Virus record (IMG/VR): IMGVR_UViG_2903506739_000001 | Location: 3,696-67,695 of that record | Reading direction: 5' to 3' (one strand) | DNA: 64,000 nucleotides | From: a virus | In this document: one piece after another, positions 3,674-61,891 of the stretch | Layout: each line of letters begins with the position of its first letter | Numbering within the stretch: position 1 is the stretch's first letter | Position numbers and translations under genes: made by a program | Notes under the pieces: model-generated | Told to the model about the DNA's origin: nothing | Seen by the model: the letters and a program-made list of their open reading frames with translations, nothing else | Databases searched by the model: none

Positions 3674-3726
3674 GGCTTCGCTTCCCAACGATCAACCGCA
3701 ACAGCCATTTCGAAAGGACAAGGAAC

Positions 3727-15958: not shown

Positions 15959-16155
15959 GCGACAAGGTGACCATCTCGGACATCCGCCGCGCCGGCCATT
16001 GCGTATCGGGCGCCAAGGCGTGGTTTGAGCGCCACAATCTCGATTTCCGAGACTTCATCAAGAACGGCATAGACGAAGAGACGTTTCTTGCTTCCGGCGA
16101 CGCTCTAGGTGTGGCCGTCGTCGAGCACAAGCGGAAGCTCGGCAACGATGGGTAA
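15955..16155 (+). CDS. small hypothetical protein (GTG start overlapping upstream stop)
   Basis: 66-codon ORF whose GTGA overlaps the preceding stop. It in turn overlaps the start of the next gene. Confidence 0.2.
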   Translation: MSDKVTISDIRRAGHCVSGAKAWFERHNLDFRDFIKNGIDEETFLASGDALGVAVVEHKRKLGNDG

Positions 16156-19081
16156 ATCCAAGCCGAAACAACAGGTCGCCGAATACCGCATGTCGATCCA
16201 CTTCGGCATCTGCGCAGGCGCCGTCGACTATATCTCGCGCATTGTCATCGGTGAAAAGGAAGCCTGGAAGGGACGCGTCGACTCCCTGACCGGTTTCCGC
16301 GTCAACAAGCCAGATCTGTTCGGTGGCATCAAGAAAGAAGGTGGCGTCTCAGGAACGGTCACCTATCTGCCGGGTGACGTCGATCAGGTCATGCCTGAAG
16401 CGCTTGCCGCAAAGTATGGCAAGACCGCAGCGACGATGCCCGCCTATCGTGGCCTGTCGTCGGTCTTCTTCACCGAAGGCCCATCATCGACCGGATCGGG
16501 AACATTCCTGGACCAGATCCGCGATTGGCTTGCTGGCATCTTTTCCTCGTTCGCAGGCTCGGATCGCAAGGGTTTCTACTGGACGGCGAACTCACCCTAT
16601 CTGCGCGGCGTCTGGGTGGAAGCGGCTCGCGCATCGATCGGGCTCGAGCCGGCCTATGCGCGCATTTTCCGAGATCCGACGACCGAGAATGTGGCGCTCT
16701 ATTTCGCCATCGATATCTCTTCGTCCATCGTGGGCGTGCGCATAAACGCATTGAAAAGATGCCTTCATGACGCCGTCGCCTATCTGCGCGCCCGCACTGA
16801 CCGCAGCCAGGACATCTGCTTCGTTTCCTTCTCGACTGACGTCGTCAACTCGGTGACCTTCCGAAACGCGTCATCGGCCGATTTTGATGCGCTGGACACC
16901 TTCATCGACGACCTGATCGGCGCCGGCACATCCACGGACTTCAGCAAAGGCGCCAGCCAGGCAGCGACGTTCTTTGCCGGTGCCGGCAGCAAGATCCCTG
17001 CTGTCATCTTCATTTCCGACAACGCCGATCAGAGCGGTGACCACATCATTGGTGCAAGTGCCGCAAAGAGCGCGCTCGACGACGTACCTGTGTATTGTTT
17101 CCGGGTATGGGGCGCTGGCGACACGACCATGGTGGCCAACTTCCTCGGGACGCTGGATAACACGGCTCAGGACGGCATGCCTGTTTTGATGTCGTCGACA
17201 TCGAACGGTCTGGTATCGGGGCTCAACCCCTCTCAAACGCTGATCCCGTTCGACAGCAATCCAGCTCACATGATCTACGAGCTCCTGCCCTACACCGACC
17301 GGGGCAGGTCTTCGGCAGGCACCGACAAGGCGTCGTTCGAGGCTGCCGCGCTGACGCTCTTCAACGAGCGGTTTGGCATTTCGCTGCTGTGGAACCGGCA
17401 GTCGACGGTCGAGGATTTCGTCAAGGAGATTCAGGACCACATCGAAGCGGCGATCTTCCTGAACCCGAAGACCGGCCTGCTGACGATCAAGCTGATCCGC
17501 GGCGACTACGATCCGGACACTGTGCCGGTGTTCACCGTGGACAACTGCGTCGTCACCAACTTCTCGCGCAAGCTATGGGGCGAGACGATCAACGAGATCG
17601 TGGTGACGTGGACCAACCCGGAAAACGAGGAGGAAGAGACCGTCACTCAGCAGGATCTTGCCAACATCTCGGTCCAGGATGGCAAGATCATTTCCGACAG
17701 CCGCAACTATTACGGCATCCGCAGGAGCGATCTCGCGGCCTTCACCGCGCAGCGCGACCTGCGCGTGGCGGCAGCGCCGCTCGCCTCGTGCGACCTGGAA
17801 TGCGACCGCACAGCATGGGACCTCCTGCCGGGCGACGTGATCAAGCTGGTGTCGCCAGAAGACGGCATAGCGGCGATCTTCATGCGCGTCGGCCCGATCG
17901 ACTACGGCAAGCCGGGCGATTCCAAGATCAAGGCCTCGCTCGTCGAGGACATCTTCTCGCTGCCGCTGGCAGAGTATTCCTTGCCACCGCCGCCAGCGAC
18001 GGATGATTCCTCAGAGCAGCCGGCGCCGGCTGCGTTCGCCTACATCTTCACGCTGCCCTACTATTTGGTAGTGCACGAAATTGATCCTGCCGCATCGGCG
18101 GGGATCGACTATCCGGTGGTATTCGCAGGCGTGCTTGCGGGCCAGAGTGGCAGCGACACGCATGAATTCGAACTGATCGGCAAGACCACCGACACGCTCG
18201 GCAATGTGGTGTCGGAGGATATCGGCTCGCGATCGATCGCGTCGCACGCCACGCTGTCAGCCGACCTCGCCGAGGAAGCCGAGTCGCTTATCGCCAGCTT
18301 CCCCGGCCGGACGACCGGCGACGGCCCTGTGGTCGGTGGCTTCGTGGTCATCGGAGACGGCGCGGAAAGCGAGGTCGAGTTTGGACTGGTGACCGTCGCC
18401 GACGACACTGGCTACACGATCCGCCGCGGTGTTCTGGACACGGTGCCGCAAGCCTGGCCGAGCGGCTCGCCGGTCTGGTTCCTCGGCGACGGCCTCGACT
18501 TCGTCGACAACGAGCAGCGCTCGGACGGCGAGACCGTCGACTACAAGATCCTGCCGCGCACGTCGCTCGGACTGCTCGACGAGGACGCGGCTTCATGGAT
18601 CTCGACGACGCTGACCGGCCGCCCGTGGCTGCCGTTCCGGCCAGCTGACGTACATGTAGATGGAATCGCTTTCGGCGATGTGGACGCTACGGCACTGCCG
18701 CTGATCCCGGTGACCTGGTCGGATCGCAACCGGCTGACCGAGGACAGCATCGTACTGGCCTGGGACGCGGCGACTGTGACGCCGGAAACGGGGCAGACCA
18801 CGGTCATCCATCTCACCGACAGCGCCGGCACTGTCGTTCACACCTACAGCGGGATCACCGCCACCAGTTTCGACGTCGATCCTGCCGATTTCGGCAGCCT
18901 GTCGTCAGGCTACATCGTCGTGAAAAGCGAGCGCGATGGTCTGGAATCCCTGCAGGGCGTGCGCCGCCGCGTCGTTCTCATGAGTTCGCTGTTGCTCTCG
19001 GGAGACCAGCAGGACGGCGCTGACCATATCGCGCTGTCCGGCGACCAGGCACCAGGCATCATTCTCATCTCAGGATCGTAG
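16148..19081 (+). CDS. host specificity / central tail fibre protein (gpJ or GTA g15 analogue)
   Basis: 977 aa ORF from the internal ATG at 16148 (M14 of the track ORF). It is the largest tail gene after the hub proteins. Confidence 0.6.
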   Translation: MGKSKPKQQVAEYRMSIHFGICAGAVDYISRIVIGEKEAWKGRVDSLTGFRVNKPDLFGGIKKEGGVSGTVTYLPGDVDQVMPEALAAKYGKTAATMPAYRGLSSVFFTEGPSSTGSGTFLDQIRDWLAGIFSSFAGSDRKGFYWTANSPYLRGVWVEAARASIGLEPAYARIFRDPTTENVALYFAIDISSSIVGVRINALKRCLHDAVAYLRARTDRSQDICFVSFSTDVVNSVTFRNASSADFDALDTFIDDLIGAGTSTDFSKGASQAATFFAGAGSKIPAVIFISDNADQSGDHIIGASAAKSALDDVPVYCFRVWGAGDTTMVANFLGTLDNTAQDGMPVLMSSTSNGLVSGLNPSQTLIPFDSNPAHMIYELLPYTDRGRSSAGTDKASFEAAALTLFNERFGISLLWNRQSTVEDFVKEIQDHIEAAIFLNPKTGLLTIKLIRGDYDPDTVPVFTVDNCVVTNFSRKLWGETINEIVVTWTNPENEEEETVTQQDLANISVQDGKIISDSRNYYGIRRSDLAAFTAQRDLRVAAAPLASCDLECDRTAWDLLPGDVIKLVSPEDGIAAIFMRVGPIDYGKPGDSKIKASLVEDIFSLPLAEYSLPPPPATDDSSEQPAPAAFAYIFTLPYYLVVHEIDPAASAGIDYPVVFAGVLAGQSGSDTHEFELIGKTTDTLGNVVSEDIGSRSIASHATLSADLAEEAESLIASFPGRTTGDGPVVGGFVVIGDGAESEVEFGLVTVADDTGYTIRRGVLDTVPQAWPSGSPVWFLGDGLDFVDNEQRSDGETVDYKILPRTSLGLLDEDAASWISTTLTGRPWLPFRPADVHVDGIAFGDVDATALPLIPVTWSDRNRLTEDSIVLAWDAATVTPETGQTTVIHLTDSAGTVVHTYSGITATSFDVDPADFGSLSSGYIVVKSERDGLESLQGVRRRVVLMSSLLLSGDQQDGADHIALSGDQAPGIILISGS

Positions 19082-28345: not shown

Positions 28346-28668
28346 TGGCTCTTCCCGATCGAAGTTGGGGCCTCGACGTATCCGTGCTTCCTGGTGGTCT
28401 CGCGCAGCGACCTGCAAGCCCGTTCCAGGGCCAGACGCGCCGGACGCTCGTCGCTCGTGTACTTGGCGCCGTCGAGCCGTGTCAGAGCTTCGGCAACGGC
28501 GCGTGCGTCGCGCACCAGCCTGGCGTCGGCGGCGAGCGGTATCTTGACGCGCACGATCGGCGGCAGCGTCGCCGCCGCGATCTGCCTTTTGACGATCGGC
28601 TCCAACGCCCTGGCCAGTTGGACCGCCATGGAACGCTCACGGGGCGTCGACTCTTCGACCATGCTCAT
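28342..28668 (-). CDS. hypothetical protein
   Basis: 108 aa ORF. Its ATG overlaps the methyltransferase stop (ATGA). Confidence 0.45.
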   Translation of the reverse strand: MSMVEESTPRERSMAVQLARALEPIVKRQIAAATLPPIVRVKIPLAADARLVRDARAVAEALTRLDGAKYTSDERPARLALERACRSLRETTRKHGYVEAPTSIGKSQ

Positions 28669-30143
28669 CCAAGCAACTCCTCAAATAATCCACTGTCAGT
28701 TGAATTGATGTGCACGGGTACGGCATGCCTGTCGCCGTGCGGGCAGCCGCAGGGCATGCCGAGGTCGGCATCGCCGTAGAACCAGCCGCTGTTGCCGCAG
28801 TAATCGCATTCCGGCTCGCCGAGGAGGTCATCGAAATTGTCTGCCGGCGCGATCAGGCCGAGGCGGCAACGGATGTCGGCGGCATATTCGGCCTCCATTT
28901 CGATCAACACGGCTTTGCAGCCTTCATCGAGCGCGGCCTTGCCGGTGGTGCCGGTGCCGGCGAAGGGGTCGAGCACCGTGCCGCCCTTCGGCGTGATGTG
29001 GCGCACCAGCGACCTGATCAGGCCTGGCGGCTTCACTGTTGGATGAGCATCGATCGGCGCCCGCTTGCCGTCCGCACCGACGCAGCCGCAGGTTGGCCGG
29101 CCGATGAAACGCGTTCCGCAGCTGGTGCATTTGTTGATGCGGTCCTTCGACGATGCCTTGGCGTGATAGAGGATCGGCTGGCCGTCGAACGGGTAACTTT
29201 CGAAGAAGCGGGCGGCATTCGACGGAAAAAGCGCGGCAACTTCCGCTGACGCGTCGTGGGCGATGTTCGCCGGCCAGCGGCCGGGCGGATCGTAGTTGTC
29301 ACGGTCTTTGCTGAACTTGCCGTAAATCTGGTTCTGCATCGGCCCGCTGCCGAAATCCGCATGACGGTTTTTGCCCTTGGACTCGGCCTCGTCGTCGTCG
29401 TCGTGGAAGGGCACGCGGCAACCATCAATGTTCACGGCTCCGACGCCATGCTTGAGGATGTTCAGGGCACCGTTCTTCTCGGAGAATGGCTTCTGGCCGA
29501 CATAGATCGGTTCCAGCGCTGGTTTGCGCACCTGGCCGCCATAATGCCAGCCTTGCCACGCGGCGGCATCATCGGTCCCCGGCTCGTAGAGCCCCGGCTG
29601 GTATTCGCGGTTGTCGAGTTTCTCCCACGTGCCGTCCTTGTGCTGGTCGGCGCCGGGCCGAATGCGACGGACAGGATCGCCGGTCGGCACTGTCTTACCC
29701 TTGACGCCAAGCGCCTTGTCGACGGCAACAGCGGCGTTGTGGGCTTTCGGAAATCCGCTGGCGAAGCACCAGCCGATCATCGGATGGGTGATGAAGCCGG
29801 CGTCCTCGATCGCCGTCGCCATGCGGTGATAGGTGCGGCTCGAGGAGAAGGCGACGATGTAGCCGCCAGGCTTGAGCACCTGGAAAACGAGATGCCAGAA
29901 CTCGGGATCGTTCTCGATATCGGTGCCGTCCCACGTCCGGCCCATAAATCCCTTGGACTGGCGCTGGAAGGCGCCGTCGCGGCCGGGCTTGGCCGGCTTG
30001 GCATTCTCCTTGCCGAACCGCTTGACAACGCTCTTGAGGCCGTATGGCGGGTCAGAGCAGACCGAGTCGACCTGCTCCCCGCGTTCGATCATACCGTTGA
30101 GCACGGCGCGGGCGTCGCCCTCATGAAGCGTGATCGCCTTCAT
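28665..30143 (-). CDS. DNA methyltransferase, beta-class amino-MTase (N6-adenine or N4-cytosine; DPPY near N-terminus, FxGxG near C-terminus) with Cys-rich insertion; C-terminal FEELLG tail
   Basis: 492 aa ORF. Motif IV SDPPYG lies at ~aa 30. Motif I LDPFAGTGTTG lies near the C-terminus. A zinc-ribbon-like segment CTSCGTRFIGRPTCGC lies between them. Confidence 0.8.
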   Translation of the reverse strand: MKAITLHEGDARAVLNGMIERGEQVDSVCSDPPYGLKSVVKRFGKENAKPAKPGRDGAFQRQSKGFMGRTWDGTDIENDPEFWHLVFQVLKPGGYIVAFSSSRTYHRMATAIEDAGFITHPMIGWCFASGFPKAHNAAVAVDKALGVKGKTVPTGDPVRRIRPGADQHKDGTWEKLDNREYQPGLYEPGTDDAAAWQGWHYGGQVRKPALEPIYVGQKPFSEKNGALNILKHGVGAVNIDGCRVPFHDDDDEAESKGKNRHADFGSGPMQNQIYGKFSKDRDNYDPPGRWPANIAHDASAEVAALFPSNAARFFESYPFDGQPILYHAKASSKDRINKCTSCGTRFIGRPTCGCVGADGKRAPIDAHPTVKPPGLIRSLVRHITPKGGTVLDPFAGTGTTGKAALDEGCKAVLIEMEAEYAADIRCRLGLIAPADNFDDLLGEPECDYCGNSGWFYGDADLGMPCGCPHGDRHAVPVHINSTDSGLFEELLG

Positions 30144-30343
30144 CCCAACAGATCCTCGAAAACCGTGGCGCGCTGTTTCTTCGCCTCACGCTCGCCGGCC
30201 CGCCAGATGAGCAGCGCCGCCTTGCGGTCCCAACTGGCGTCCTCGATACGCAATGTCGGACTGGTGAACAGGCCGGGCTCGTGCTTGACGCTGTCGAGCA
30301 TCGCTTGGAAGTCTTGCTCGAAGAAACGTTCGAACGGTGTCAT
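30140..30343 (-). CDS. hypothetical protein with C-terminal FEDLLG tail
   Basis: 67 aa ORF with ATGA overlaps at both ends. Confidence 0.5.
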   Translation of the reverse strand: MTPFERFFEQDFQAMLDSVKHEPGLFTSPTLRIEDASWDRKAALLIWRAGEREAKKQRATVFEDLLG

Positions 30344-30660
30344 CAGAGCAGGTCCGAGAAGTCGTCCTTCGGCGCTGGCGTATCATCGTGCGGCGGTGCC
30401 GGCGTCTTGATCGCCGGATTGTCCTTGCCGATGCCCTGGAAATCGTGCTTGTCGGGCTTCAACTGGCCAGTCTCGACGTCGAAGCTCAGGCCGGTCTCAC
30501 TCGCCTTGCCGCCCGGATAGGCCTTGTCCAGTTCCTCGAGCAGCGGCGTCTTCTGCAAGTAGAAGCGGAAGGTCTTGTCGGTGCCCGGAAAGGGGTAACA
30601 GTCGAACCAGGGGTTGCCCTTGGTCTTGCGGATCGCGCCGCGCAGTTCGCCTAGTTTCAT
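30343..30660 (-). CDS. hypothetical protein ending DDFSDLL
   Basis: 105 aa ORF with a Pro-rich acidic C-terminus. Confidence 0.5.
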   Translation of the reverse strand: MKLGELRGAIRKTKGNPWFDCYPFPGTDKTFRFYLQKTPLLEELDKAYPGGKASETGLSFDVETGQLKPDKHDFQGIGKDNPAIKTPAPPHDDTPAPKDDFSDLL

Positions 30661-30670
30661 GTCAGTCGTC

Positions 30671-30898
30671 CTATCCTAGGAGATCGGCAAATTCGGTTTT
30701 CGGTATCTGAGCATGAGCCACCGGCATGGCGGCACGCAAAGCCGCTTCGGCGGTAGGTCCTTCGCCGCGGTAGGGCGATGGCATCTCGTTGCGCTTGTCG
30801 CGCAGAAAGCAGCGCCAAAGGCCGTCCACGCCTTCGTATAAATTGGACACCAGCAGCTTGCGGCGCTTGATCTCCGCGAGCAGCGAACCGGTGCTCAT
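30671..30898 (-). CDS. hypothetical protein with C-terminal EFADLLG tail
   Basis: 75 aa ORF. Confidence 0.5.
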   Translation of the reverse strand: MSTGSLLAEIKRRKLLVSNLYEGVDGLWRCFLRDKRNEMPSPYRGEGPTAEAALRAAMPVAHAQIPKTEFADLLG

Positions 30899-31004: not shown

Positions 31005-31319
31005 TCACACCATCCCGAGCGCGGCTTTGTATAAATCGAGGATCGACTCCTCTTCCTGCCGCTCGGCCTGGTCCTTCTTGCGCAGGCGGATGATGGCGCG
31101 CATCGCCTTGACGTCGAAACCGGTCCCGCGTGCCTCCTGGAAGACCTCGCGGATGTCGTCGGAGATCGTCTTTTTCTCCTCCTCGAGCCGTTCCACCCTT
31201 TCGATGAAAGCGCGCAACTGGCCGGCCGCGACGGTTTGGCTGGTCTCGGTAATGTTGTCCTCCTTGGACACGCCGCGACCGTCGCCGCCCATCAGGTCGT
31301 CATCAACGCTCTTGCCCAT
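31005..31319 (-). CDS. GapR-like nucleoid-associated DNA-binding protein (DUF2312 family)
   Basis: Start at M30 of the track ORF. The sequence (…[70 protein letters not shown]) matches the conserved DUF2312/GapR pattern known from Caulobacter and alphaproteobacterial phages. Confidence 0.8.
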
Positions 31320-31511: not shown

Positions 31512-32393
31512 TCAGGGTCGGCCGACCTCGAGGAACGGCACCGTGCCGCTCGGCAGCATCGACGTCGGAAGCTTGCCGTCCCACCGCTCGGCCTTGGTCA
31601 GTTCGACCAGGGTGGGGTTGGAACCGAGAGCCGCGGCACGCGCCTGGATGGCTTCCGCCTGTGCCTCGCCTTCGGCCTTGACCTTATAGGCCTCGGCGTC
31701 GGCTTCCGCCTTCACGCTGTCGGCGCGGCCCTTGGCCTGAGTGACGGCAATGTCGGCCTTGATCTTCTCCTGCTGCAGGGTCTGTTCCTGCTTCTGGACC
31801 TCGACCTGTGCCGTCATGCGCGCCTCCACGGCCTGTTCGTAGGCGTCGGAGAAGTCGATATTCTCGATCTGCACGGAGTCGACGACGATCGGCCCGCGCA
31901 CCGCTTCGATTACCGCCCTGGAGACCTCGGAGTTGAACTTGTTGCGGCTCTGGATGACTGACACGGCATCGTATTGGCCGAACACGGTCTTGATGGTCTG
32001 CGGCGCGGTGCGGGCAACCGTGCGCTCCTCGAGCACTTCGAGCGAGCCGTATTGCGCATAGACGTCTTCGACCTGGTCCGGCGACACGTGGTAGGTGACG
32101 CTGACGCGCATGTCGGCGGCCTGCTGATCCTTCGAATAGGCCTGCATGACGTCGCGGGTGTCCTTGAAGCCCCAATAGGTCGTCTGCTGCTGCGTGCTGA
32201 GCTTCACGACCGACTGGAAGAACGGCGCCTTGAAATGCAGGCCGGGCTCGGCGATCGACGTGAACGCGCCGTTGGTGAGCAGCACGCCGCGCTGTCCCTG
32301 GTCGACGGTGTAGAAGCTGCCGAACAGCGTAAGCGTGCCGATGAGCCCGACGAAAGCCGCGATTCCGATGGTGATGACCCTGCCCATGTTCAT
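31512..32393 (-). CDS. SPFH/band-7 (prohibitin/stomatin/HflKC-like) membrane protein
   Basis: Start at M25 of the track ORF, preceded by AAGGAGA. N-terminal TM helix, SPFH core, Ala/Glu/Lys-rich coiled-coil C-terminus. Confidence 0.7.
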   Translation of the reverse strand: MNMGRVITIGIAAFVGLIGTLTLFGSFYTVDQGQRGVLLTNGAFTSIAEPGLHFKAPFFQSVVKLSTQQQTTYWGFKDTRDVMQAYSKDQQAADMRVSVTYHVSPDQVEDVYAQYGSLEVLEERTVARTAPQTIKTVFGQYDAVSVIQSRNKFNSEVSRAVIEAVRGPIVVDSVQIENIDFSDAYEQAVEARMTAQVEVQKQEQTLQQEKIKADIAVTQAKGRADSVKAEADAEAYKVKAEGEAQAEAIQARAAALGSNPTLVELTKAERWDGKLPTSMLPSGTVPFLEVGRP

Positions 32394-32463
32394 GGAATTT
32401 GTCTCCTTCTGCTGGTTGAAAACTGATCTTGCCAAATGCATTAGCGGGCACACATATTCAGGC

Positions 32464-32703
32464 ATGCTGTGGTTTTGGCCGCCCGTTTACGTGAGAGAAT
32501 TGTCGACCGGTCAAACGCTCGGCGTGAAGTCGGTCGAAGCGGCGATCGAGCAGATGCGGACATGGCCGAAGGTCGGCAAGAAGATGAAAGAGGCCTACCC
32601 GATCTGCTACGGCGTGATGGACGGCTCGCACACGGTCGACCAGTGCCGCGCCGCCTTCGAGGCAGCCGCGAAAGAGGCCAAGGTGGTGCGGAGCGGCGAA
32701 TGA
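32464..32703 (+). CDS. DUF982-like small protein (rhizobial family); plus-strand moron inside the leftward region
   Basis: 79 aa from M44 of track ORF 32335..32703. An AT-richer promoter-like stretch lies upstream. Family call is tentative. Confidence 0.4.
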   Translation: MLWFWPPVYVRELSTGQTLGVKSVEAAIEQMRTWPKVGKKMKEAYPICYGVMDGSHTVDQCRAAFEAAAKEAKVVRSGE

Positions 32704-33724: not shown

Positions 33725-34540
33725 TCAGAATCCAACCAGCGTACGAAGTTCGGCATAGGCGTCGGGCACCAGCACGACGACGTAGCGTCCGCTGTTGTCC
33801 TTCGCCTCGCGGATCTCGGCGGCACCGAACAGCGCCTGCAACTGCTGCTTCAGGCTGGATTTCTTCTCGCCGCCCATGTGCTTGGCCGTGGCGCGTGTCT
33901 TTCCCTCGGCCCGCGCCGTCTCGACGGCCTGGGTGAGCTTGCTCGTGGCCTCCGCTGCATCGCCAGCGCTCTGCTTGAGCGCGTTGACGGCGAGCGTTGC
34001 CGAGACAGAGCCGTCCCTGACCATTCGGGTCATCGTCTCGGGTGCCGCCTGCAGATTGAGAAGGTCGACCACCCACTGGCGCGTCAGGCCGGATTTCTGC
34101 GCGATGTCGGACTCCGTCCAGCCGAGATCGACGAGGCGCTTGAACACTTTCGCCTGCTCGATCGGCCGCAGCGGTTTGCCGGAGTTCCGCACGATCTGCG
34201 AGAAGACGCGGTCGGCCTCGCTGGCGTAACGGTCCTCGGTCTGCACCGGCAGCGACTTGATCTCGGCGCCGAGATGCTCGATCGCGTACTGCGTCGCGAA
34301 AAGGCGCCTATGACCATCCGAGACGAAGGCCTTGCCGTCGAGCCAATAGACGGTGAGATTCGCCTTGACGCCGACCTCGGCGATCGACTGCGCCAGCGCC
34401 AGGTCGTCAGGGTCGTCGGGATTGAAGTTCTCGGTGCGGCAGTTCCAGCCGTCCTTGACGTGGATGTCTGCCGGCGCAAGGCGGTAGGTGTCGGAACGGC
34501 CGACCGCGACGCCCTTTATGCCTTCCATATTCTTCGACAT
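33725..34540 (-). CDS. ParB-like nuclease domain protein with C-terminal HTH
   Basis: 271 aa ORF. ParB/Srx-type motif DGHRRLFA. Downstream helix-turn-helix segment (SDIAQKSGLTRQWV). Confidence 0.7.
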   Translation of the reverse strand: MSKNMEGIKGVAVGRSDTYRLAPADIHVKDGWNCRTENFNPDDPDDLALAQSIAEVGVKANLTVYWLDGKAFVSDGHRRLFATQYAIEHLGAEIKSLPVQTEDRYASEADRVFSQIVRNSGKPLRPIEQAKVFKRLVDLGWTESDIAQKSGLTRQWVVDLLNLQAAPETMTRMVRDGSVSATLAVNALKQSAGDAAEATSKLTQAVETARAEGKTRATAKHMGGEKKSSLKQQLQALFGAAEIREAKDNSGRYVVVLVPDAYAELRTLVGF

Positions 34541-34862: not shown

Positions 34863-35296
34863 CGGAGCGATGCAGCCCGCTTTGCGGCCTTGCGGGCGCG
34901 CTTCTCTTCGGCTGCAGAAAGTCGGTCAACGTTCGCCGCCACAGGCGGGTCGACGAAAGAGGGATGTGGATCGATGATCGAGGGAGCCGGATCGACACGC
35001 GTAGACTGCTTCCAATACGGCTCGACCAAGCCGCGCAGACGCCGACCGTCCTTAAGTTCGATCCAATCCTCATCGACGTCATAGGCATAGACGTTGCCCG
35101 GCATGCCGATGCCGTTGAAGCGAACGCCGACCCGCTTGCAGATGTCGCGCGTTGAATCGCTGAGCCGCAGCCGGCGCGGCGGCGCATCCGGATCGATGTT
35201 CGACGTGGCGACAGGCCTTCTCGGTGGTTCCGAAATAAGCAGGCCTGCCATGGCACCAAGAGCGGCGAGATGAAGTCCCCTTGACCCGCGCATCAA
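34859..35296 (-). CDS. secreted hypothetical protein (N-terminal signal peptide)
   Basis: 145 aa ORF beginning MMRGSRGLHLAALGAMAGLLIS. Confidence 0.45.
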   Translation of the reverse strand: MMRGSRGLHLAALGAMAGLLISEPPRRPVATSNIDPDAPPRRLRLSDSTRDICKRVGVRFNGIGMPGNVYAYDVDEDWIELKDGRRLRGLVEPYWKQSTRVDPAPSIIDPHPSFVDPPVAANVDRLSAAEEKRARKAAKRAASLR

Positions 35297-35928
35297 AATG
35301 CCTTCCCGCCTTCCTTGAGCCGGTTCTCTGGTTTGTGATCGGCCCTGGTGGCGTTGTAGGCGTCCTTCTCGACGAAGATGACGCCGGCAGGGTGTTCGTC
35401 ATTGCCCTCGCTGCCGAGGATGTCGAGACAGCGAATAATCTCGTCGATCAACTCGACGCGCCAGCCAGGTCGATGCGGCAGCTTGTCGTCGGGTTTGTCG
35501 CCCTTGCGGCGCGCCTCGAGCGCTTCCGTCAACTCGCTGTGGCAGAGGGCCATGAGTTCGCCGAAATTGCGCTTGCCGTGCAGATCCTCGCCGGTCTTAG
35601 GATCGTTCCACCAGCCACGCTCAACGTTGCCCTTGTGGACCGCATTGGCGAGATTGGTAATAAGCGATGCCTTGTCGCTGATGACGTAGAGCACGGCACC
35701 GCGGGCAAGCTCGGCAATCATGTTCTGGACGGTGCCGACGTGGATCGGCTTTTCGAGGTAAGCGAGCCGCGTGGCGAGCTCGGCGGCTTCGTCGTCGATC
35801 CACTGGTTGAGATTGGTCGGCCGCTCGCCGAGGCCAAGATCGGCCATGCTGATGCGGTCGGCTGACTCGGCACGCATGATGTCCTCGCGCACGTCATCAA
35901 TAAAATCGTCCCTGTCTCGATATCCCAT
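35293..35928 (-). CDS. MazG-like nucleoside triphosphate pyrophosphohydrolase
   Basis: 211 aa ORF. All-alpha NTP-PPase motif pattern (NFGELMALCHSELTEALEA … VELIDEIIRCLD). Confidence 0.6.
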   Translation of the reverse strand: MGYRDRDDFIDDVREDIMRAESADRISMADLGLGERPTNLNQWIDDEAAELATRLAYLEKPIHVGTVQNMIAELARGAVLYVISDKASLITNLANAVHKGNVERGWWNDPKTGEDLHGKRNFGELMALCHSELTEALEARRKGDKPDDKLPHRPGWRVELIDEIIRCLDILGSEGNDEHPAGVIFVEKDAYNATRADHKPENRLKEGGKAF

Positions 35929-35937
35929 TGTGGTTGA

Positions 35938-36645
35938 TCACCTTTCCTCACGGTTGAATCTCTGGTCACGATTGAGCAGCGATCGCAGGGCAATCACTGC
36001 TTCCGTCTGGTTCTTGGCTCCAAGCATCTCCCAGAGTCCGTCGAGCGCGACGCGCTGTACCTGTTCCGTGATGCTCTGCCTTTCACGCGGTGCCTGCGGT
36101 TCGGCGATACCTTCGCAGACGATTCCGGCTTCACGGAACATCGTCGCGGCGGCCTCCATCTCATCACCCCATTTGGCCGGATCAAGCGCGCTGCTTGCGT
36201 CATAGTAGACGGCCGAAATCCCTGCCTGGATCAGCGTGCGACAACAGGCGGCGCATGGGTGATGCGTCTGGTAGACCGCACAGCCCTTGGTGCGGATGCC
36301 CTCGCGAGCGGCAAAGGCCACGAGGTTGGCTTCGGCATGCGAGGCATAAAGGTACTTCGCCGGGCGCTCGAAGCGCTCAGGACGGTCCTGCACGCCACGC
36401 GGCGGGCCGTTATAACTGGTCAGCCTGACCTCGCCTTCCGGACCGACGAGCACTGCGCCGACCTTGGTCGTGTCCTTCGACTTGGTCGCGGCATGGCAGG
36501 CGAAATCGAGCAGATAGCGAGTCCAGCCTGATTTCGGGGCGCCTCTCTGTTTGCGACCTTCCTGTTGCTCTTTGCGGGCTTCCTGGCGATCGTTCGTCCA
36601 ACCGAACTCCGCATCCCACGCCTGTCCGTCACTGAGTCCCATCAC
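35938..36645 (-). CDS. dCMP / cytidine deaminase family protein
   Basis: 235 aa ORF. Zinc-binding motifs HAEANL … PCAACCRTLIQAGI. Confidence 0.8.
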   Translation of the reverse strand: MMGLSDGQAWDAEFGWTNDRQEARKEQQEGRKQRGAPKSGWTRYLLDFACHAATKSKDTTKVGAVLVGPEGEVRLTSYNGPPRGVQDRPERFERPAKYLYASHAEANLVAFAAREGIRTKGCAVYQTHHPCAACCRTLIQAGISAVYYDASSALDPAKWGDEMEAAATMFREAGIVCEGIAEPQAPRERQSITEQVQRVALDGLWEMLGAKNQTEAVIALRSLLNRDQRFNREER

Positions 36646-46448: not shown

Positions 46449-46715
46449 TCAGCCGAGCAAATCGGCGAATTCCGCCCGAGCTTTCCGGGCAGCCCTGGCA
46501 GCGCGCTTGCGTTCCCTTTCGCGCTCGGCATTGGCTTGCGCATGTCGGCGCCGATCGGCTTTGCAGCACTCGACGCAACGTTTGTTGACGGTATAGCGGA
46601 CGGCGCGCGACTCGGCCGTGATCACGATTGCGCCGTGCTCGAGGCAAGGCCGGCCGAGATAGAAGCGCGCGCCGCTGGCTTTGGCTTCCGCCCATGGCAA
46701 GGCTAGATCCGTCAT
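46449..46715 (-). CDS. Cys-rich (zinc-ribbon-like) protein with basic region and C-terminal EFADLLG tail
   Basis: Start at M9 of the track ORF. Contains CLEHG…CVECC. Confidence 0.45.
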   Translation of the reverse strand: MTDLALPWAEAKASGARFYLGRPCLEHGAIVITAESRAVRYTVNKRCVECCKADRRRHAQANAERERERKRAARAARKARAEFADLLG

Positions 46716-50538: not shown

Positions 50539-52962
50539 TTAGATGTCGAAATCGTCTTTTTCGTCTTCTTCGATCTCGACGACCGGCTCGGAATGCCAGA
50601 CGATCTCGGAGCCTAGGAAGGTCTCGAAGGCCTGGCGGCATTCCTCGAGCGGCGGGAAGGCGTACTGGTTGAGGCGCTGGCTGCCGTCGCGCGGGCGGCG
50701 CGTCTCGATCGCTGGCACCAACTGGCGCATGACCTTGCCGAAATGGACCTCGTTGAGTTGCTTGCCCTCATAGCGCCGGCTGTGCATCCACCCAACATAG
50801 GTGTCGTAGAAATCACCCTTGTCGACAACGGCTTTTTCCTTCCACCAGTCGCCCTCGGCGTCGGCGGAAATGCGCCCTGATTCGAGCATGTCGAACCACC
50901 AGTGCTCGACGTTTTTCAAGCCTTCGATCTTCTGCTCGCCGAGCGCGATCGTGTCGGGCACGGCGCGGACATTGAAGCGGCTCAGATCGTAGTTCAGCAG
51001 ATAGTGCAGAAGGCCTGCCCGACCGCCGTTGCGCATCTCGTGCCGGATGGCGGCGAAATAGGCATGGTCGCCCTTCTTCGTCGGAGGCACGTCGAGCACG
51101 AAATAGCGGCGCTCGTCCTCGGTCGCCGGCACCACCCACTTTTCGTTCGACGACATGAACAGGCGAAGCACGCTGTCGATGTGGTAGCCGTTCAGGCCCT
51201 TTGGTTCGATGAAGAGGCTTTCCGTCGTGATCAGGTGCTTAAGCACGCCTTCGGCGTTCTTGGAGCCCGCCCAAAAGCCCTCCTCGACATGCAGCAACAG
51301 GCACTTTTCCATGTGCGCGTTGAACTTGCCGGTGAGCTGATCCTGGTTGGCGATCTTGACGTGATGGTGCGGAAACAGTCCGCCGACGTAATCGGCGATC
51401 GTGTCCTTGCCGACGCCCTTCTTGCCGCGGAGCACCATGGCGACGCCGGGCTTTTCTTCTGGCCGCTGGATCATGTGCGCCCACCATCCGAACGTGTAGT
51501 TTGCAGCCCGCTCGTCGTTCGAGCAGATCACCTTTCTCAGGTGCGCCAGGATGAGGCGACAGGAGGCTTCCGGGTCGGGCTCGACGGAGAACCCGCGCCA
51601 GTGGTTATAGGCCCCCTTGACCTCGCGCCCTGGTGCGAAGACCACGCCGTTCGAATACTCACGCCTGAGCTTGTGGCGCATCCACGCCTTGGTGACCGGC
51701 TCGGTCGCCTTGTCGGTGGCAACGCGGTCGTTCTCATAAAAGTTGTGGAGATCGCCGACCGTGCCGAGCGCGACAGCGCCGTCATCCTTCTCGGTCAGGA
51801 TTGCCGTCTTGCCGTTGAGGAACACGACTGCGTGCTTGTTGTTGAGACGCTTCACCTTGGGCGGCACGTGCCCTAGCGCCGCCTCGACGTCGGCCTTCTT
51901 CAGCTTCGTCTCGCGCTTGCTCTGTTTGGGCGCCCGCCCCCCGCCGCCGAGCAGGTCGTCAAACTCGTCGGCTACTGGCTTCTCGTCGAGATCGGAATCG
52001 GTGTCGAAATCGTCGCCGTCTTCGAGGTTGTCGAATTCCTCGGACAGTCTGGCCTCTCGCACGGCATTGACGACCGTGCGCATCGTGATCAGCTTGCGTC
52101 CTTCCTTGTGTTTGAAGGACCAGAATTTGAATTTCGTCGTCTTGTCGTCGTTCTTGTCGGATGCTCGCGACCAATCCAGGAAGGCCTTGTAGAACTGCTG
52201 TCGCTCGTCCTTGCTGCGGCCTGAACTCTCGTGGCTGACGGCGGCCATGACCTCGAGCCATTGGTCGTAGTCGAGGCTCTCGTTGGGGTAGTCCTTGAGG
52301 AGGTTGCGGACCTCGTCGACCGTGAGGCCGAGCGGCTTGGCGCGCTCAGGATCTTGCTCGCCGGCATCGTCATCGCCGTCGACAACCTTTTGCAGGATCT
52401 CGGCCGGCACGAACGGCCCGTCGCCGAGCAGAAGCGAGTCGAAATCGAATTGCTTCAGCCAACGGTAGGGCTTGCCGGTGTCGGGATGGATCGACGCGGG
52501 GATGACGACCTGCTTGCCGGTGCCGTAGAGCTCGATTTCCCATCGCCAGCGCATCTTGCCATCGGCGCACACCATCTTCTCATCGCTGTGGGCAAGCTGC
52601 CGCGAGGAAAAAGGCTTGTCGCTCAACAGGTAAAAATGGCGGCTCTCGCCGCCCGAACCTGAAATGACGGTCGGCCAGTCGGCCGATTCGGGGAAGAGCA
52701 CAGCGACCTTGGCGCGCGCTTCGTCCGCTAGGGATGCGTCACGAACGTCGAGGTCGATGACGTGCATCCAGTGGTCGCCGACCTTCGACCATTTGCCAAG
52801 GCGGACGCCGACATTGTTGCCGTTGCGGTAGGTCTTCCTGAGCTTTTCGAGGGACGCGACTGGTTTGTCCTGCCAATCGTCGCCGACCGGCCGTTTCGAC
52901 TTCGGATGAAGCCAATGGATGGCAAAGCCCGCACGGGCAAGGTGCTCAATGTGGGCGAGCAT
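50539..52962 (-). CDS. bifunctional primase-polymerase (prim-pol N-domain) / D5-like SF3 helicase; acidic C-terminus EIEEDEKDDFDI
   Basis: 807 aa ORF. N-terminal prim-pol-like region. C-terminal P-loop (MVLRGKKGVGKDTIADYVGG), as in P4 alpha / D5 NTPases. Confidence 0.7.
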   Translation of the reverse strand: MLAHIEHLARAGFAIHWLHPKSKRPVGDDWQDKPVASLEKLRKTYRNGNNVGVRLGKWSKVGDHWMHVIDLDVRDASLADEARAKVAVLFPESADWPTVISGSGGESRHFYLLSDKPFSSRQLAHSDEKMVCADGKMRWRWEIELYGTGKQVVIPASIHPDTGKPYRWLKQFDFDSLLLGDGPFVPAEILQKVVDGDDDAGEQDPERAKPLGLTVDEVRNLLKDYPNESLDYDQWLEVMAAVSHESSGRSKDERQQFYKAFLDWSRASDKNDDKTTKFKFWSFKHKEGRKLITMRTVVNAVREARLSEEFDNLEDGDDFDTDSDLDEKPVADEFDDLLGGGGRAPKQSKRETKLKKADVEAALGHVPPKVKRLNNKHAVVFLNGKTAILTEKDDGAVALGTVGDLHNFYENDRVATDKATEPVTKAWMRHKLRREYSNGVVFAPGREVKGAYNHWRGFSVEPDPEASCRLILAHLRKVICSNDERAANYTFGWWAHMIQRPEEKPGVAMVLRGKKGVGKDTIADYVGGLFPHHHVKIANQDQLTGKFNAHMEKCLLLHVEEGFWAGSKNAEGVLKHLITTESLFIEPKGLNGYHIDSVLRLFMSSNEKWVVPATEDERRYFVLDVPPTKKGDHAYFAAIRHEMRNGGRAGLLHYLLNYDLSRFNVRAVPDTIALGEQKIEGLKNVEHWWFDMLESGRISADAEGDWWKEKAVVDKGDFYDTYVGWMHSRRYEGKQLNEVHFGKVMRQLVPAIETRRPRDGSQRLNQYAFPPLEECRQAFETFLGSEIVWHSEPVVEIEEDEKDDFDI

Positions 52963-53040: not shown

Positions 53041-53370
53041 TCAGGAGAGGAACTGCCAGAAATCCTCGCGGGTCGCAGGCACGAATTCGCGACCCCTCTT
53101 TCGCTGATTCGCGGACAGCTTGACGATCTCCTCAACCTGCTTTGCGGGGATACGATTCGCGCGCCCTGGCTTGAACCACTTATAGACGCCCTGCCGCGTC
53201 ATATCGAGCTTCTCAGCCAGGCGGTCCAGGTCGCAGACGCCGTCTCGCGCATGCATGAAATCAGGCAAGGCCTGGGTCAGAAGATCATGCAGGGGTCCGC
53301 GGCTCGAGCGTGCCTTGCGGCGCTTCTTCGCCGGAGCCATGCCGAGCATGTCGTCAATGTCGATTGTCAC
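53041..53370 (-). CDS. HTH transcriptional regulator (Cro/CII-like early regulator)
   Basis: GTG start with AGGGAG 8 nt upstream. HTH segment LDRLAEKLDMTRQGVYKWF. First gene of the leftward operon from the divergent control region. Confidence 0.55.
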   Translation of the reverse strand: MTIDIDDMLGMAPAKKRRKARSSRGPLHDLLTQALPDFMHARDGVCDLDRLAEKLDMTRQGVYKWFKPGRANRIPAKQVEEIVKLSANQRKRGREFVPATREDFWQFLS

Positions 53371-53519
53371 TCTCGCATCTCCCTCGTTACGGACACAAAG
53401 CCTAACCGACCCCAAATTAATATTCAACTGCCAATTGACATGTTCAACTTTACGGTCAACTATTCAGCCAACGCATCGACCCGAGCGGCGGGCGTTTCAG
53501 CAACGAACCGGAGATAGAC
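53371..53519. promoter_or_regulatory. divergent early control region with multiple TTCAAC/GTCAAC half-sites and a TTGACA-N17-AACTAT promoter-like element facing right
   Basis: The sequence …TATTCAACTGCCAATTGACATGTTCAACTTTACGGTCAACTATTCAGCC… lies between divergent genes. Confidence 0.45.
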
Positions 53520-53972
53520 ATGAGCCTGGAAGAAGCCCTGAACCGTAACAACGAACTGCTTGCCGAGCATAACGACCTTCTCAAGAAGGTACTCGGCGCC
53601 GCTGCCAACAAGGCCGGCAAGACCGAGGAAACCGCCGCCGCTGGTTCCGGCAAGGGCGGCAAAGGCAAGGCCGACAAGAAGGAAGACGCTTCCGCAGAAT
53701 TCGACGCCGACGCGCTGAAGGCGGCAATCGCCAAGGCCGGCACCTGGCTCGGCGAGTTCAAGGACAACGAGGCCGATGGCGAGACCCAGGCGCGCAAGGA
53801 CAAGCTGCGGCAGGCGCTCGACAAGCTCGGCTACAAGCTCGCCAAGGACATCAACAAGGCGGAAGACGTGAAGCGTTTCGAGACCTGGGTCGAGAAGCAG
53901 ATCGCGGCCGGCCGCATCACGCCCGAGCCGGAAGAAGCCGGCGAGGAAGCCTCGAGCGAGGACGACATCTAG
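53520..53972 (+). CDS. Lys/Ala/Glu-rich hypothetical protein; acidic C-terminus
   Basis: 150 aa ORF. First rightward gene. Confidence 0.45.
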   Translation: MSLEEALNRNNELLAEHNDLLKKVLGAAANKAGKTEETAAAGSGKGGKGKADKKEDASAEFDADALKAAIAKAGTWLGEFKDNEADGETQARKDKLRQALDKLGYKLAKDINKAEDVKRFETWVEKQIAAGRITPEPEEAGEEASSEDDI

Positions 53973-60658: not shown

Positions 60659-61891
60659 ATGAGCAAAGCCTATTACAACGAGATCGACAAATACGCTGCC
60701 ACATGGCTGCGTAACCTGATCACGGCAGGGCTCATCGCGCCCGGCGACGTGGACGAGAGGGACATCCGTGACGTTCGACCTTCTGACCTCAGAGGCTACA
60801 CACAAGTTCACGCATTTGCAGGCATTGGCGTCTGGTCGTATGGACTTCGACGGGGGGGCTGGCCAGACGATCGACCCGTCTGGACAGGTAGTTGCCCTTG
60901 CCAACCTTTCTCCGCGGCAGGCCGAGGAGATGGGTTTGTTGACGAGCGGCACCTTTGGCCGCATTGGCACCATCTCATCGCAGAGTGCCGACCTGATGAG
61001 GTCTTTGGAGAGCAAGTTGCGTCAAAGGACGGCCTTGCTTGGCTCGACCTTGTATTCGCTGACATGGAAGGAACGGGCTACGCCATTGGGGCGCTCGATA
61101 CCTGCTCTGCGGGCAGCGGCGCGCCGCACATCCGGCAAAGGCTCCGATTCGCAGCCTACCATCAACGACTTGCCGCAGGTCGGTTGGGCGACTGCTTGGG
61201 CCGAGGATGGCGAGAGCGCCGGCATGCGATGGAACCGGGGCATAGCGGACACGCTGACGGCGCAGGCCTCCTTGGCTGGCTGGACGACGACCACGACGAG
61301 GGATTGGAAGGATTCGGGCGCGGATATCACGCCTCGACCAGACAACGGCAAGGATCGGTTCGACCAATTGCCGAGACAGGCGAATTTGACGGGCTGGCCC
61401 ACGGCACAGAGTCGAGACGGCAGTCACGGGGGCGGACAGTCTACGAGAACAGCGGGGAACCGTCGCAACCTGGACGACTTCGCGATGTTGACTGGTTGGG
61501 GGACACCGAATGCATCGGCGCCGGGCGGCACGCCAGAACAGGCGTTGCAGCGGAAAGAGGGCACCGGAGCGGGTCTTTCGGTAACGACGCTGGATCATCA
61601 GGTGCAATTGGTCGGCCCGGCCCGACTAACGGCCACTGGCGAGACGCTGATTGGCTATTCTGCCGGGATGGCAAGTGGCGGCCAGTTGAACCCAACACAT
61701 TCCCGTTGGCTCATGGGGCTACCTCCCGAGTGGGACGGTTGCGCGCCTACGGCAACGCAGTCGACGCGGAAGCCACGCGCATCTTCATCGAAGCGTATCT
61801 CGACCGCGAGACGCTCGAACTTGAGCCCGTACGAGAGACTGCTACTGGCGGTCCTGAATTAAACGCTTCCTTTGATGATCTGCTTGGTTAG
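60659..61891 (+). pseudogene. C5-cytosine DNA methyltransferase with internal frame disruption (motifs I, IV, VI, VIII and X in one frame, the GWxTP-repeat region in the +1 frame); C-terminal FDDLLG tail
   Basis: Frame A (60659→~61150) carries [24 protein letters not shown] and RQRLRF. Frame A then degenerates into Arg/Gly noise. The overlapping frame B (track ORF 60768..61862) carries LTWKERATP / LAGWTTTT / LTGWPTAQ / LTGWGTP repeats and [12 protein letters not shown]. Frame A resumes with [10 protein letters not shown] at ~61.75 kb. Confidence 0.55.

Follow-up and report, generated by a model that had tools for sequence, protein, structure and literature searches.

Why would proteins that are otherwise unrelated end in the same six amino acids? 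This question is raised by a stretch of viral DNA of 64,000 nucleotides (positions 3,696 to 67,695 of IMG/VR record IMGVR_UViG_2903506739_000001), which we call the window. A preliminary description of the window had noticed the C-terminal peptide F-x-[DE]-L-L-G on five proteins, including two of the three putative methyltransferases (MTases), and proposed that it tethers these proteins to a common partner. Our analysis suggests that this peptide, FxDLLG for short, is a real and previously undescribed short linear docking motif that extends across a lineage of phages. As for the partner, we tentatively favor a hub that is encoded by the phage, belongs to the phage's own replication machinery, and co-evolves with the motif; we hold this reading at a little short of an even chance.

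A hexapeptide shared by unrelated proteins

Five proteins of the window end in F-x-[DE]-L-L-G and a sixth ends in FSDLL, and we found all six open reading frames (ORFs) and tails to be as first described. The first is a β-class N6/N4 DNA MTase of 492 amino acids (28665..30143, minus strand; Pfam PF01555, E=6.5e-24), which matches a protein from Mesorhizobium sp. B2-8-9 exactly and ends in GLFEELLG (FEELLG is at residues 487-492, or 28668..28685, minus strand). Three small proteins are encoded beside it on the minus strand: a 67-amino-acid protein without a Pfam or PHROG family that ends in TVFEDLLG (30140..30343; motif at 30143-30160), a 105-amino-acid protein that ends in DDFSDLL before two stop codons (30343..30660; motif at 30346-30360), and a 75-amino-acid protein that ends in TEFADLLG (30671..30898; motif at 30674-30691). 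The other two are an 88-amino-acid basic, Cys-rich protein that ends in AEFADLLG (46449..46715, minus strand; motif at 46452-46469) and has only weak PHROG matches, and a C5 cytosine DNA MTase of 410 amino acids that ends in ASFDDLLG (60659..61891, plus strand; Pfam PF00145; motif at 61871-61888). Scans of the small carriers against Pfam and PHROG gave no family annotation.

A search of all six frames of the window for [FWY]x[DE]LLG gave seven matches, all of them in real genes and all starting with F. Five are C-terminal. The two internal copies were not in the preliminary description: NFDDLLG in the N6-MTase, where FDDLLG (residues 437-442; 28818..28835, minus strand) directly follows the catalytic domain, and EFDDLLGGGG (residues 334-339; 51946-51963, minus strand) in an 807-amino-acid primase-polymerase/DUF5906 helicase (50539..52962, minus strand; Pfam Prim-Pol, PriCT_2, and DUF5906), where it lies in the linker that joins the PriCT-2 part to the helicase part. 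We will refer to this primase-helicase as the prim-pol. Motif-bearing peptides from the window include PADNFDDLLGEPE, STDSGLFEELLG, and ADEFDDLLGGGG. No copy was found in the third MTase-like protein (42028-44001).

Two more proteins have degenerate copies near their N-termini. The first is a phage GapR-like DNA-binding protein (31005..31319, minus strand; Pfam PF10073, E=2e-34) with its copy at 31284-31307; its start codon, ATG at 31319, has the ribosome-binding site AAGGA upstream. The second, more tentatively, is a YdaS-like helix-turn-helix (HTH) protein (53041..53427, minus strand) with a probable copy, IDIDDMLG, at ~53341-53358; its start codon is uncertain.

The suspected enrichment of this C-terminus beyond chance was borne out. 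With 93 genes and the amino-acid composition of the window, 2.8e-4 terminal motifs are expected and 5 are observed (Poisson P ~1e-20), while 0.06 copies are expected in total (Poisson P ~4e-13). None of 2000 residue shuffles gave more than one terminal match. Outside of their tails of 6-16 residues, the carriers have no similarity to each other.

The codons that were quoted for the tails are correct, and they differ between copies. Within a genome, Ser is encoded by TCA, TCG, or AGC and Leu by CTN or TTG, and among the copies these six-fold-degenerate codons differ by at least 2 bases; the mean pairwise nucleotide identity of the copies (~0.69-0.72) is what the shared amino acids alone predict. 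Because the codons differ between copies, selection acts on the peptide. The codon differences and the unrelated carriers thus uphold the view that this is a short linear motif under protein-level selection and not a repeated DNA element; the codon evidence rules out a DNA repeat or a gene-conversion tract.

The copies on the larger proteins are predicted to be in disordered regions. An AlphaFold model of the N6-MTase is confident for the catalytic domain, to about residue 430, but pLDDT is <50 for residues 431-492. Within this disordered tail, a short helical turn is predicted at residues 486-491. The model of the prim-pol (from a 94-sequence alignment) has a mean pLDDT of 88.7, and residues 314-348, the linker with the motif, are disordered (pLDDT<50). 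Neither model docks the motif confidently on its own protein.

Two other features of the N6-MTase tail lie beside the motif. The two copies are separated by a Cys-rich insert (CxxC...CxC; 28686-28817, minus strand, CDYCGNSGW...CGCPHG) that is kept in the closest homologs (such as P0003; P-numbers are protein homologs, and L-numbers are related viral loci or genomes). AlphaFold's confidence in this segment is low; it could be a small zinc ribbon. Also, in the N6-MTase and C5-MTase families alike, the terminal motif comes right after a conserved element, [N/K]-S-T-[D/N/K/Q]-S-G (as in NSTDSGLFEELLG and NSTNSGLFEDLLG). In the window's N6-MTase, this element is at residues 481-486 (28686-28703, minus strand). 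The recognition peptide may thus be longer than the hexapeptide, or the two families may have a tail cassette in common.

Distribution among related phages

The window (61% G+C) is a prophage of Mesorhizobium sp. B2-8-9, since its N6-MTase, C5-MTase, and primase-helicase are identical to proteins of this bacterium that are encoded on a 454-kb contig. A megablast search with a 24 kb query found no close DNA relative among GenBank phages. The prophage is kin to a cultured Rhodobacter phage, RcBigEagle (Casjensviridae, 68 kb), which has the same gene set.

If the motif is functional, it should be conserved on orthologs in related phages and prophages, and it is, on the MTases, the primase-helicase, and the small ORFs. 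Of the 120 best homologs of the N6-MTase, 14 have the strict motif at their end and ~40 have a relaxed version of it, frequently with two or three tandem copies (for instance, FEDLLGGNFADLLG and DQFEDLLGGNFADLLG). Across 340 members of the N6-MTase family, the motif occurs 11.4 times per 1000 residues of post-catalytic tail, versus 0.17 in the protein bodies (~67x). For the C5-MTase, 15 of 120 homologs carry this type of tail after the catalytic domain. One of these tails, NSTNSGLFEDLLG, is almost identical to the 13-mer on the N6 enzyme. Most homologs of the prim-pol (90/120, down to 46% identity) keep F-D-D-[L/I/V]-L-G at one position of a linker that is otherwise acidic and hypervariable, and the motif is conserved across homologs of 46-60% identity.

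The small proteins behave in the same way. The 67-amino-acid protein has homologs in L008 and L198 that likewise terminate with the motif; orthologs of the 105-amino-acid protein end in DDLLV (L040, L078, and L011), FDLLV (L006), or LDDLFV (RcBigEagle); and weak homologs of the 75-amino-acid protein in L012 and L176 bear the motif as well. Relatives' GapR homologs have DDEDLIGGDG, NDDLIGTGDG, or PDVLGDN near the N-terminus. As for the YdaS-like protein, VTDTDNLLGD is the start of its homolog in L190, and residues 18-23 of its homolog in L189 are LYDLLV. In 80 viral loci around relatives of the MTase, we found 12 matches to the relaxed terminal motif, versus 0-1 in scrambled controls, and these matches cluster on several adjacent genes of particular phages.

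Relatives also extend the list of carriers. RcBigEagle has the motif on its small terminase (MTTDLTDLF), portal (MGLTNTDLSDLLG), integrase (TDLSDILGDTELLV), both MTases (one ending in TDLSDLFLANATTNDELLV), exonuclease (SDSELLI), and several small proteins; its motif-bearing peptides include MGLTNTDLSDLLGT and MTTDLTDLFSAD. In a group of Agrobacterium type, the carriers are the portal, a DUF1441 protein at the position of the small terminase, an AlpA-like protein, the MTase, and the ortholog of the 105-amino-acid protein. The motif had been described as a C-terminal tail on MTases and small early proteins. These proteins do carry it, but relatives add the portal, small terminase, integrase, AlpA-like protein, exonuclease, and GapR, and the restriction to C-termini does not hold: copies are also found at extreme N-termini and inside linkers. 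Given these copies and the wide range of carriers, a C-terminal position is not obligatory, and the motif belongs to proteins that act on DNA in general. Judging from all of these copies, its general form is a hydrophobic residue (mostly F), any residue, [D/E], [L/I/V], and [L/I/M/F], followed by G, V, or the C-terminus.

A peptide that looks similar, FIDDLIGAG, is found at about residue 266 of a 990-amino-acid tail protein (16109-19081, plus strand; its RcBigEagle counterpart is GTA TIM-barrel-like). As it would lie within a folded domain, its fit to the relaxed motif may be due to chance.

To see how widely the motif is spread, we scanned 2.9 million viral contigs from IMG/VR for the strict form, F-[DE]-D-L-L-G-stop. 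Coding matches were essentially confined to this lineage; two outside of it, in an SLT domain and in an RdRP-like protein, look like chance and were set aside. The named hosts of phages with the motif are all Alphaproteobacteria. We conclude that the motif is used by a whole lineage of alphaproteobacterial temperate phages (Casjensviridae-like). Other searches were uninformative: a search of viral contigs with the prim-pol protein alone found no loci, a scan of genome contigs with the MTase alignment gave mostly irrelevant short matches, and tblastn with the tail peptide alone, which is too short a query, gave no match.

The motif comes in several flavors (LL, IL, VL, LI, and DLSDLx), and these are concordant within genomes: concordance is 0.69, versus 0.40 expected in permutations (P<=1e-4). 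For example, four proteins from Hartmannibacter have YSSVLG, YSDVLG, YADVLG, and HSDVLG, and L008 is of the IL flavor throughout, as L176 is of the VL flavor. Agrobacterium phages, which share a host genus, have three flavors: VL (L189), IL (P0422), and DLSDL[ILM] (the L011 type). Going by these sequences, flavor co-varies within the phage genome and not with the host genus.

Candidate docking partners

What might the motif bind? The most telling comparison is with the peptides that bind the bacterial β-clamp (DnaN), whose consensus is QL[SD]LF or, more broadly, Q-phi-x-[L/M]-[F/L] and Q-phi-x-[L/M]-x-[F/L] (PMC11139829). Cultured phages with related N6-MTases have tails of another kind: PDQLGLF (Dinoroseobacter phage R4C), GQASLFDL (Rhodobacter phage RcSaxon), DDLPLFGGEAA (Caulobacter phage DMCA), and QPADLFGVVA (Rhizobium phage RHph_X2_25). 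Among 147 diverse representatives of the N6-MTases, [PG][LM]F or QxxLF is found within the 40 C-terminal residues of 51% and the DLLG type in 7%, with no overlap between the two groups. The DinB protein of Sphingomonas, a genuine client of the clamp, ends in ELPIFAEAAA, which is nearly identical to the PLF...EAA(E) tails of phage MTases and confirms, at the level of sequence, that the PLF type is a clamp-binding tail. As the tails of the orthologous MTases fit the clamp consensus and resemble the end of DinB, a large family of phage MTases appears to be tethered to the clamp by canonical tails. A 2024 review of the clamp lists no bacterial or phage MTase among its partners (PMC11139829).

Because these canonical tails are at the same position on orthologous MTases, FxDLLG would be the functional counterpart of the clamp-binding tail that these MTases have in phages with replication of the host type, and it may have replaced the clamp tether in one lineage. 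Its apparent behavior fits the docking tail that was first proposed: it sits in tails and linkers that are predicted to be disordered, it is often in tandem, and it seems to be interchangeable in position with clamp-binding tails. The clamp-binding motif also lies in disordered termini or exposed loops, as the MTase tail, the prim-pol linker, and the N- and C-terminal copies of FxDLLG are predicted to do.

The tails of the PLF type vary in what comes after the motif. Some of the PLFGG-tailed MTases (L017, L021, L025, L032, L048, L064, L066, and L072; P0282 and P0312) extend with a conserved segment, roughly GGGRST.TSP.RT.D[RW].DR.EAVT, and many PLF-type tails terminate in (E)AAE or GGAA.

FxDLLG resembles the clamp-binding motif in being short, in being found on many unrelated DNA enzymes, in its positions 3-5, and in that G or GG often follows (as in PLFGG). 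It differs at the residues that define that motif. Of all residues of the clamp-binding motif, the Gln at position 1 tolerates mutation least (PMC11139829); in FxDLLG it is replaced by a conserved F (in 7/7 copies in the window and 84/90 copies in prim-pols). Position 2 should be aliphatic, but the copies in the window have A, E, D, or S there, and those in prim-pols have mostly D. At positions 4 and 5, the LL of the window fits the rule, but position 4 is I or V in 33/90 prim-pol copies. A terminal G or V is also characteristic of FxDLLG. So the motif may well work like a clamp-binding tail, but by its sequence it fails the definition of one. We saw no canonical clamp motif on the real genes of the window. 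Apparent ORFs with QLSLF or QLALF in L025 and L048 were rejected as spurious frames, as they lack a Pfam domain and have out-of-frame composition.

We hesitate to equate FxDLLG with the clamp-binding motif because it lacks the Gln and the aliphatic second residue, often has I or V at position 4, has genome-specific flavors, and belongs to a lineage with its own polymerase. A partner within the phage's own replication machinery is suggested by the genomes in which the motif is found. Every checkable DLLG-positive genome has a module of prim-pol, DUF2800, single-stranded DNA-binding protein (SSB), and family-B polymerase (PolB), while the four cultured phages with canonical clamp tails have a DnaB-type helicase, a RepA-like initiator, or their own DnaN instead. 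(RcBigEagle was considered as a polymerase-less relative, which would exclude a partner in the phage replisome, but this was dropped once the prim-pol/Cas4/PolB module was found in its genome.) Also, the C-termini of prim-pols include DDFDI, EEDDL, EDDLG, DDFDDLLG, and EEDDLLG, so the motif grades into acidic replisome tails.

In the mechanism that we propose, FxDLLG would be displayed in disordered N-termini, C-termini, or linkers, often as two copies per protein, and would tag unrelated DNA-acting proteins so that all of them dock on one common partner at phage DNA. Candidates for this partner are the phage polymerase, the SSB, and the assembled primase-helicase. Motif and receptor would co-evolve, and each phage would therefore have its own flavor. 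The enrichment of the motif, the selection on the peptide, its place in predicted disordered regions, its distribution, the swap with clamp tails, and the co-variation of flavors within genomes are what the data show; that there is a single partner, and which one it is, we infer. With more hesitation, we suggest that the lineage encodes its own hub (possibly the polymerase, the SSB, or the assembled primase-helicase) and that FDDLLG is a private address code that recruits proteins for methylation, priming, integration or excision, and packaging, as well as GapR; the co-evolved flavors would perhaps insulate a phage from co-resident relatives.

Other phages and cells offer parallels to such a hub. 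The preliminary description had drawn a comparison with the gp45-binding tails of T4. The pocket of gp45 is hydrophobic, with basic residues at its flanks that contact acidic groups (PMC3012046), and the gp45-binding tails of T4 and RB69 (at the C-terminus of the polymerase and the N-terminus of RNase H) are acidic-hydrophobic terminal peptides from a phage with a family-B polymerase, like FxDLLG. The comparison is apt as an analogy. It does not extend to the components: T4-type phages have their own clamp and loader, but we detected no phage clamp (T4 gp45-like or DnaN-like) in Pfam and PHROG scans of ~45 window proteins or with tblastn of phage DnaN against the window and its relatives, although no fold-level search was made. 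The PIP consensus, Qxxhxxaa, is absent too, and the T4-type polymerase carries the tail while the four polymerases compared here do not: PolB ends in RALQFH in the window, ILALAA in RcBigEagle, KSTNCG in L189, and IIGSLS in L190.

The bacterial SSB tail (SSB-Ct, DDDIPF) and the acidic motifs that bind RPA70N (in human PrimPol and ATRIP) are acidic-hydrophobic peptides that recruit proteins to a hub. They share with FxDLLG this logic for genome-maintenance proteins, and a primase-polymerase is a prominent carrier in both cases. In bacteria, however, the tail is on the hub SSB and not on its clients, while the carriers of FxDLLG are not SSBs and the phage SSB ends in SSIDDDEI.

Several points weigh against a phage-encoded hub. 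No receptor was found among the candidates considered: we detected no clamp, neither model docks the motif in cis, and a HerA-like protein, the one ring ATPase shared by the lineage that we examined, was rejected as the hub because its distribution does not match that of the motif. In particular, the AlphaFold model of the prim-pol, which is of the monomer, does not dock its own linker motif with confidence and gives no support for the primase-helicase as the receptor. The docking of a portal, a small terminase, or an integrase on a replisome protein has no direct precedent. The uniformity of flavor within genomes could have other causes, such as strain-specific host factors, and the restriction to one lineage could reflect common descent alone. 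Finally, because the [DE]-L-[LF] core fits positions 3-5 of the clamp motif and RcBigEagle has DLF variants, the host clamp stays a serious rival.

If the host clamp is the partner, then FxDLLG is a degenerate clamp motif by which phage proteins dock on the host DnaN that is left on phage DNA during replication. Subsite I would hold LL (or LF), and the upstream F would be close to subsite II. The clamp would be a phage-wide tool-belt, and the MTases would be tethered to it as DNMT1 is to PCNA. We consider this only slightly less likely than a phage-encoded partner. At its last position the clamp motif accepts F, L, or I, at position 3 it prefers Asp, and the LF moiety alone is able to bind (PMC11139829). 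RcBigEagle swaps F, L, and I at one position in an identical context (TDLSDLF, TDLTDLF, TDLSDLLG, and TDLSDILG), and there are hybrid forms between the two types of motif (FADLF, FVELFG, and DDLRELFG). The two types of tail are mutually exclusive at the same position of orthologous MTases, and with no canonical motif on the real genes of the window, FxDLLG may be the lineage's own version.

The placement of the copies (N-terminal, C-terminal, and tandem) also resembles that of clamp motifs in Hda, Pol IV, and MuC of phage Mu. MuC and Mor are small DNA-binding phage proteins with N- and/or C-terminal clamp motifs, and the bare DLF core of Mor is enough for function (PMC12867686). Like carriers of FxDLLG, they are small DNA-binding phage proteins with copies at the extreme termini and, in some cases, two copies per protein. 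However, they keep the Gln (QHDLF and QPDLF), and their binding to E. coli DnaN was shown experimentally (PMC12867686), while FxDLLG is spread over more than 10 protein families.

The departures from the clamp consensus at positions 1, 2, and 4 argue against the host clamp. So do the hosts: DinB tails are canonical in Mesorhizobium, Agrobacterium, Sinorhizobium, and Sphingomonas (QLRFEV, QLDLAL, QLALAL, and ELPIF) and are not FxDLLG-like. The clamp pocket is highly conserved between bacteria (PMC11139829), yet flavor is specific to the phage genome and varies within one host genus. And the only lineage in which we saw the motif encodes its own polymerase.

A different host hub, one that is specific to Alphaproteobacteria or variable within them (host GapR, host SSB, a chaperone, or a protease adaptor), seems unlikely. 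GapR is an alphaproteobacterial protein that encircles DNA, and it is encoded beside carriers in every locus that we examined. The alphaproteobacterial hosts and the carriers without an obvious role in the replisome (portal, small terminase, and integrase) are consistent with such a hub as well. But GapR also accompanies MTases with canonical clamp tails (L009, L033, L038, and L041), some phage GapRs bear the motif themselves, flavor varies among phages of one host genus, and no known host hub recognizes such a peptide.

It is less likely still that the motif acts within each protein, either as an acidic, DNA-mimicking segment that folds back to inhibit the enzyme or as an oligomerization tag. 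In its favor, the motif is an acidic, amphipathic peptide on proteins that all bind or process DNA, and a short helix is predicted over the terminal copy of the N6-MTase. However, one precise sequence on more than 10 unrelated folds favors a common receptor, no confident docking in cis was predicted for the MTase or the prim-pol, and co-variation of flavor across proteins would not be expected.

We also considered that the motif is a degron that times the turnover of early proteins via a host AAA+ protease, and find this improbable. C-terminal tails are classic degrons, and orthologs of the C5-MTase from Brucella and Ochrobactrum have ssrA-like AANDN...AA tails at the same position; many proteins of RHph_X2_25 end in AA. 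But an ssrA-like degron is strictly terminal and non-polar (LAA, with a free carboxylate), while this tail is acidic, ends in Gly, and is also found at N-termini and in linkers. Known ClpX, ClpA, and Lon signals are unlike an acidic, Gly-ended sequence. The portal, a structural protein, carries the motif, and the tandem copies and the linker copies of essential enzymes do not fit either; we rejected the degron because of the N-terminal and linker copies. Chance, a DNA repeat, or a gene-conversion tract, for which nothing speaks but the shortness of the motif, is excluded by the enrichment (P ~1e-20, with 0-1 matches in scrambled controls), the differing codons, and conservation within hypervariable linkers, and we regard its probability as negligible.

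The ssrA-like tails are of interest in themselves. They have the form AANDN(x)5-10AA (for example, AANDNHCSVAASRCA or ANDNTSKEMAA) and terminate about one-third of the homologs of the C5-MTase (P0124, P0126, P0132, and others), most of which come from prophages of Brucella and Ochrobactrum. The alphaproteobacterial ssrA tag is AANDN...LAA, so these may be ssrA-mimicking degrons or SspB-binding tails at the position of the docking motif. In RHph_X2_25 (L173; MW960032), ~18 of the 50 annotated proteins end in AA, and several contain ANDN near a terminus; this, too, looks like a terminal signal that is used across a phage, though not of the same kind. This phage encodes its own DnaN, and its helicase ends in ELEDDVPF, which is SSB-Ct-like.

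Gene content of the prophage and implications

The window contains head-tail and lysis modules, the N6_N4 MTase followed by the three small ORFs, and genes for the GapR-like protein, an SPFH protein, a ParB-like protein, a MazG-like pyrophosphatase, a dCMP deaminase, a HerA-like ATPase, and the C5 MTase. A large third MTase-like protein is present besides the N6- and C5-MTases. The replication module consists of the prim-pol/PriCT-2/DUF5906 helicase, a DUF2800 (Cas4-like) exonuclease, an Enc34-type SSB, and a divergent family-B polymerase (phrog_1252). At the left edge, an ORF for a lambda-type portal (54-1514, plus strand) is cut by the start of the window: it aligns to the lambda-family portal of RcBigEagle only from about residue 110, so its N-terminus lies upstream. 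The part of the portal that bears the motif in relatives, as well as the small terminase, are thus outside of the window.

The gapR gene is flanked by genes for the SPFH/Band-7 protein (31512-32465, minus strand) and a ParB-like HTH protein (33725-34540, minus strand), and the order ParB-GapR-small ORFs-MTase is kept in several relatives (L176, L011, and L198). The three MTase-type genes (28665-30143, 42028-44001, and 60659-61891) co-occur with the dCMP deaminase and the MazG-like pyrophosphatase (35293-35928 and 35938-36645). Among the relatives, L190 encodes a DpdA homolog (9252-9992) beside its C5-MTase, and L175 encodes a dNMP kinase and thymidylate synthase. Modifying DNA and editing the nucleotide pool thus seem to be heavy investments of this lineage.

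The replisome proteins of the window have a second class of tail, an acidic run with a terminal hydrophobic residue. These are the DUF2800 exonuclease (56596-57831, plus strand), which ends in DDAFDDDF; the SSB (57852-58508, plus strand; SSIDDDEI); the prim-pol (50539-52962, minus strand; EKDDFDI); and a 150-amino-acid protein (53520-53972, plus strand; SSEDDI). We examined this class in the window and in L170, L172, L189, L190, and L182, and its flavor is also specific to the genome: EDDF, MEDF, and LDDF in L170, DEL three times in L172, and DDGLGI and DDGLGV in L190. The acidic C-terminal tails of gp4 and gp2.5 of phage T7 bind the T7 polymerase, and the acidic tails of this lineage (DDDEI, DDDF, DDFDI, and EDDI) are similar in having an acidic run with a hydrophobic or aromatic end on replisome proteins. 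FxDLLG itself differs in part from the T7 tails, which are strictly C-terminal and depend on a terminal Phe; it is also N-terminal or internal, it usually ends in Gly, and its carriers go beyond the replisome. Intermediates between the two types are seen at the C-termini of prim-pols.

In searches of the literature for DLLG, for links between MTases and clamps, for Casjensviridae, and for phage hubs, we found no prior description of the motif, in agreement with the preliminary claim that it had not been described for phage MTases. In eukaryotes, DNMT1 is held at the replication machinery by a short motif that binds PCNA (cited in PMC9690074). Our proposal has in common with this system the tethering of an MTase by a short motif and the methylation of nascent DNA; the domain of life, the motif, and the hub are all different. 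If it is correct, this would be the first indication that the MTases of bacterial viruses are physically coupled to replication, as DNMT1 is, whether by canonical tails (in about half of the MTase family) or by the new motif. If the hub is encoded by the phage, then these would be the first phage DNA MTases tethered to a replisome, within a phage-encoded, clamp-like interaction network that is built on a new motif.

The motif would also give a sequence handle for predicting interaction networks in the uncharacterized prophages of rhizobia, agrobacteria, sphingomonads, and Rhodobacter, and its genome-specific flavors would be a natural experiment in the co-evolution of motif and receptor. A cultured relative, RcBigEagle, on R. 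capsulatus YW1, makes the predictions directly testable. If the proposal holds, then in these phages one peptide of six residues would organize the protective methylation of nascent DNA, priming, the management of supercoils, integration and excision, and packaging around a single platform.

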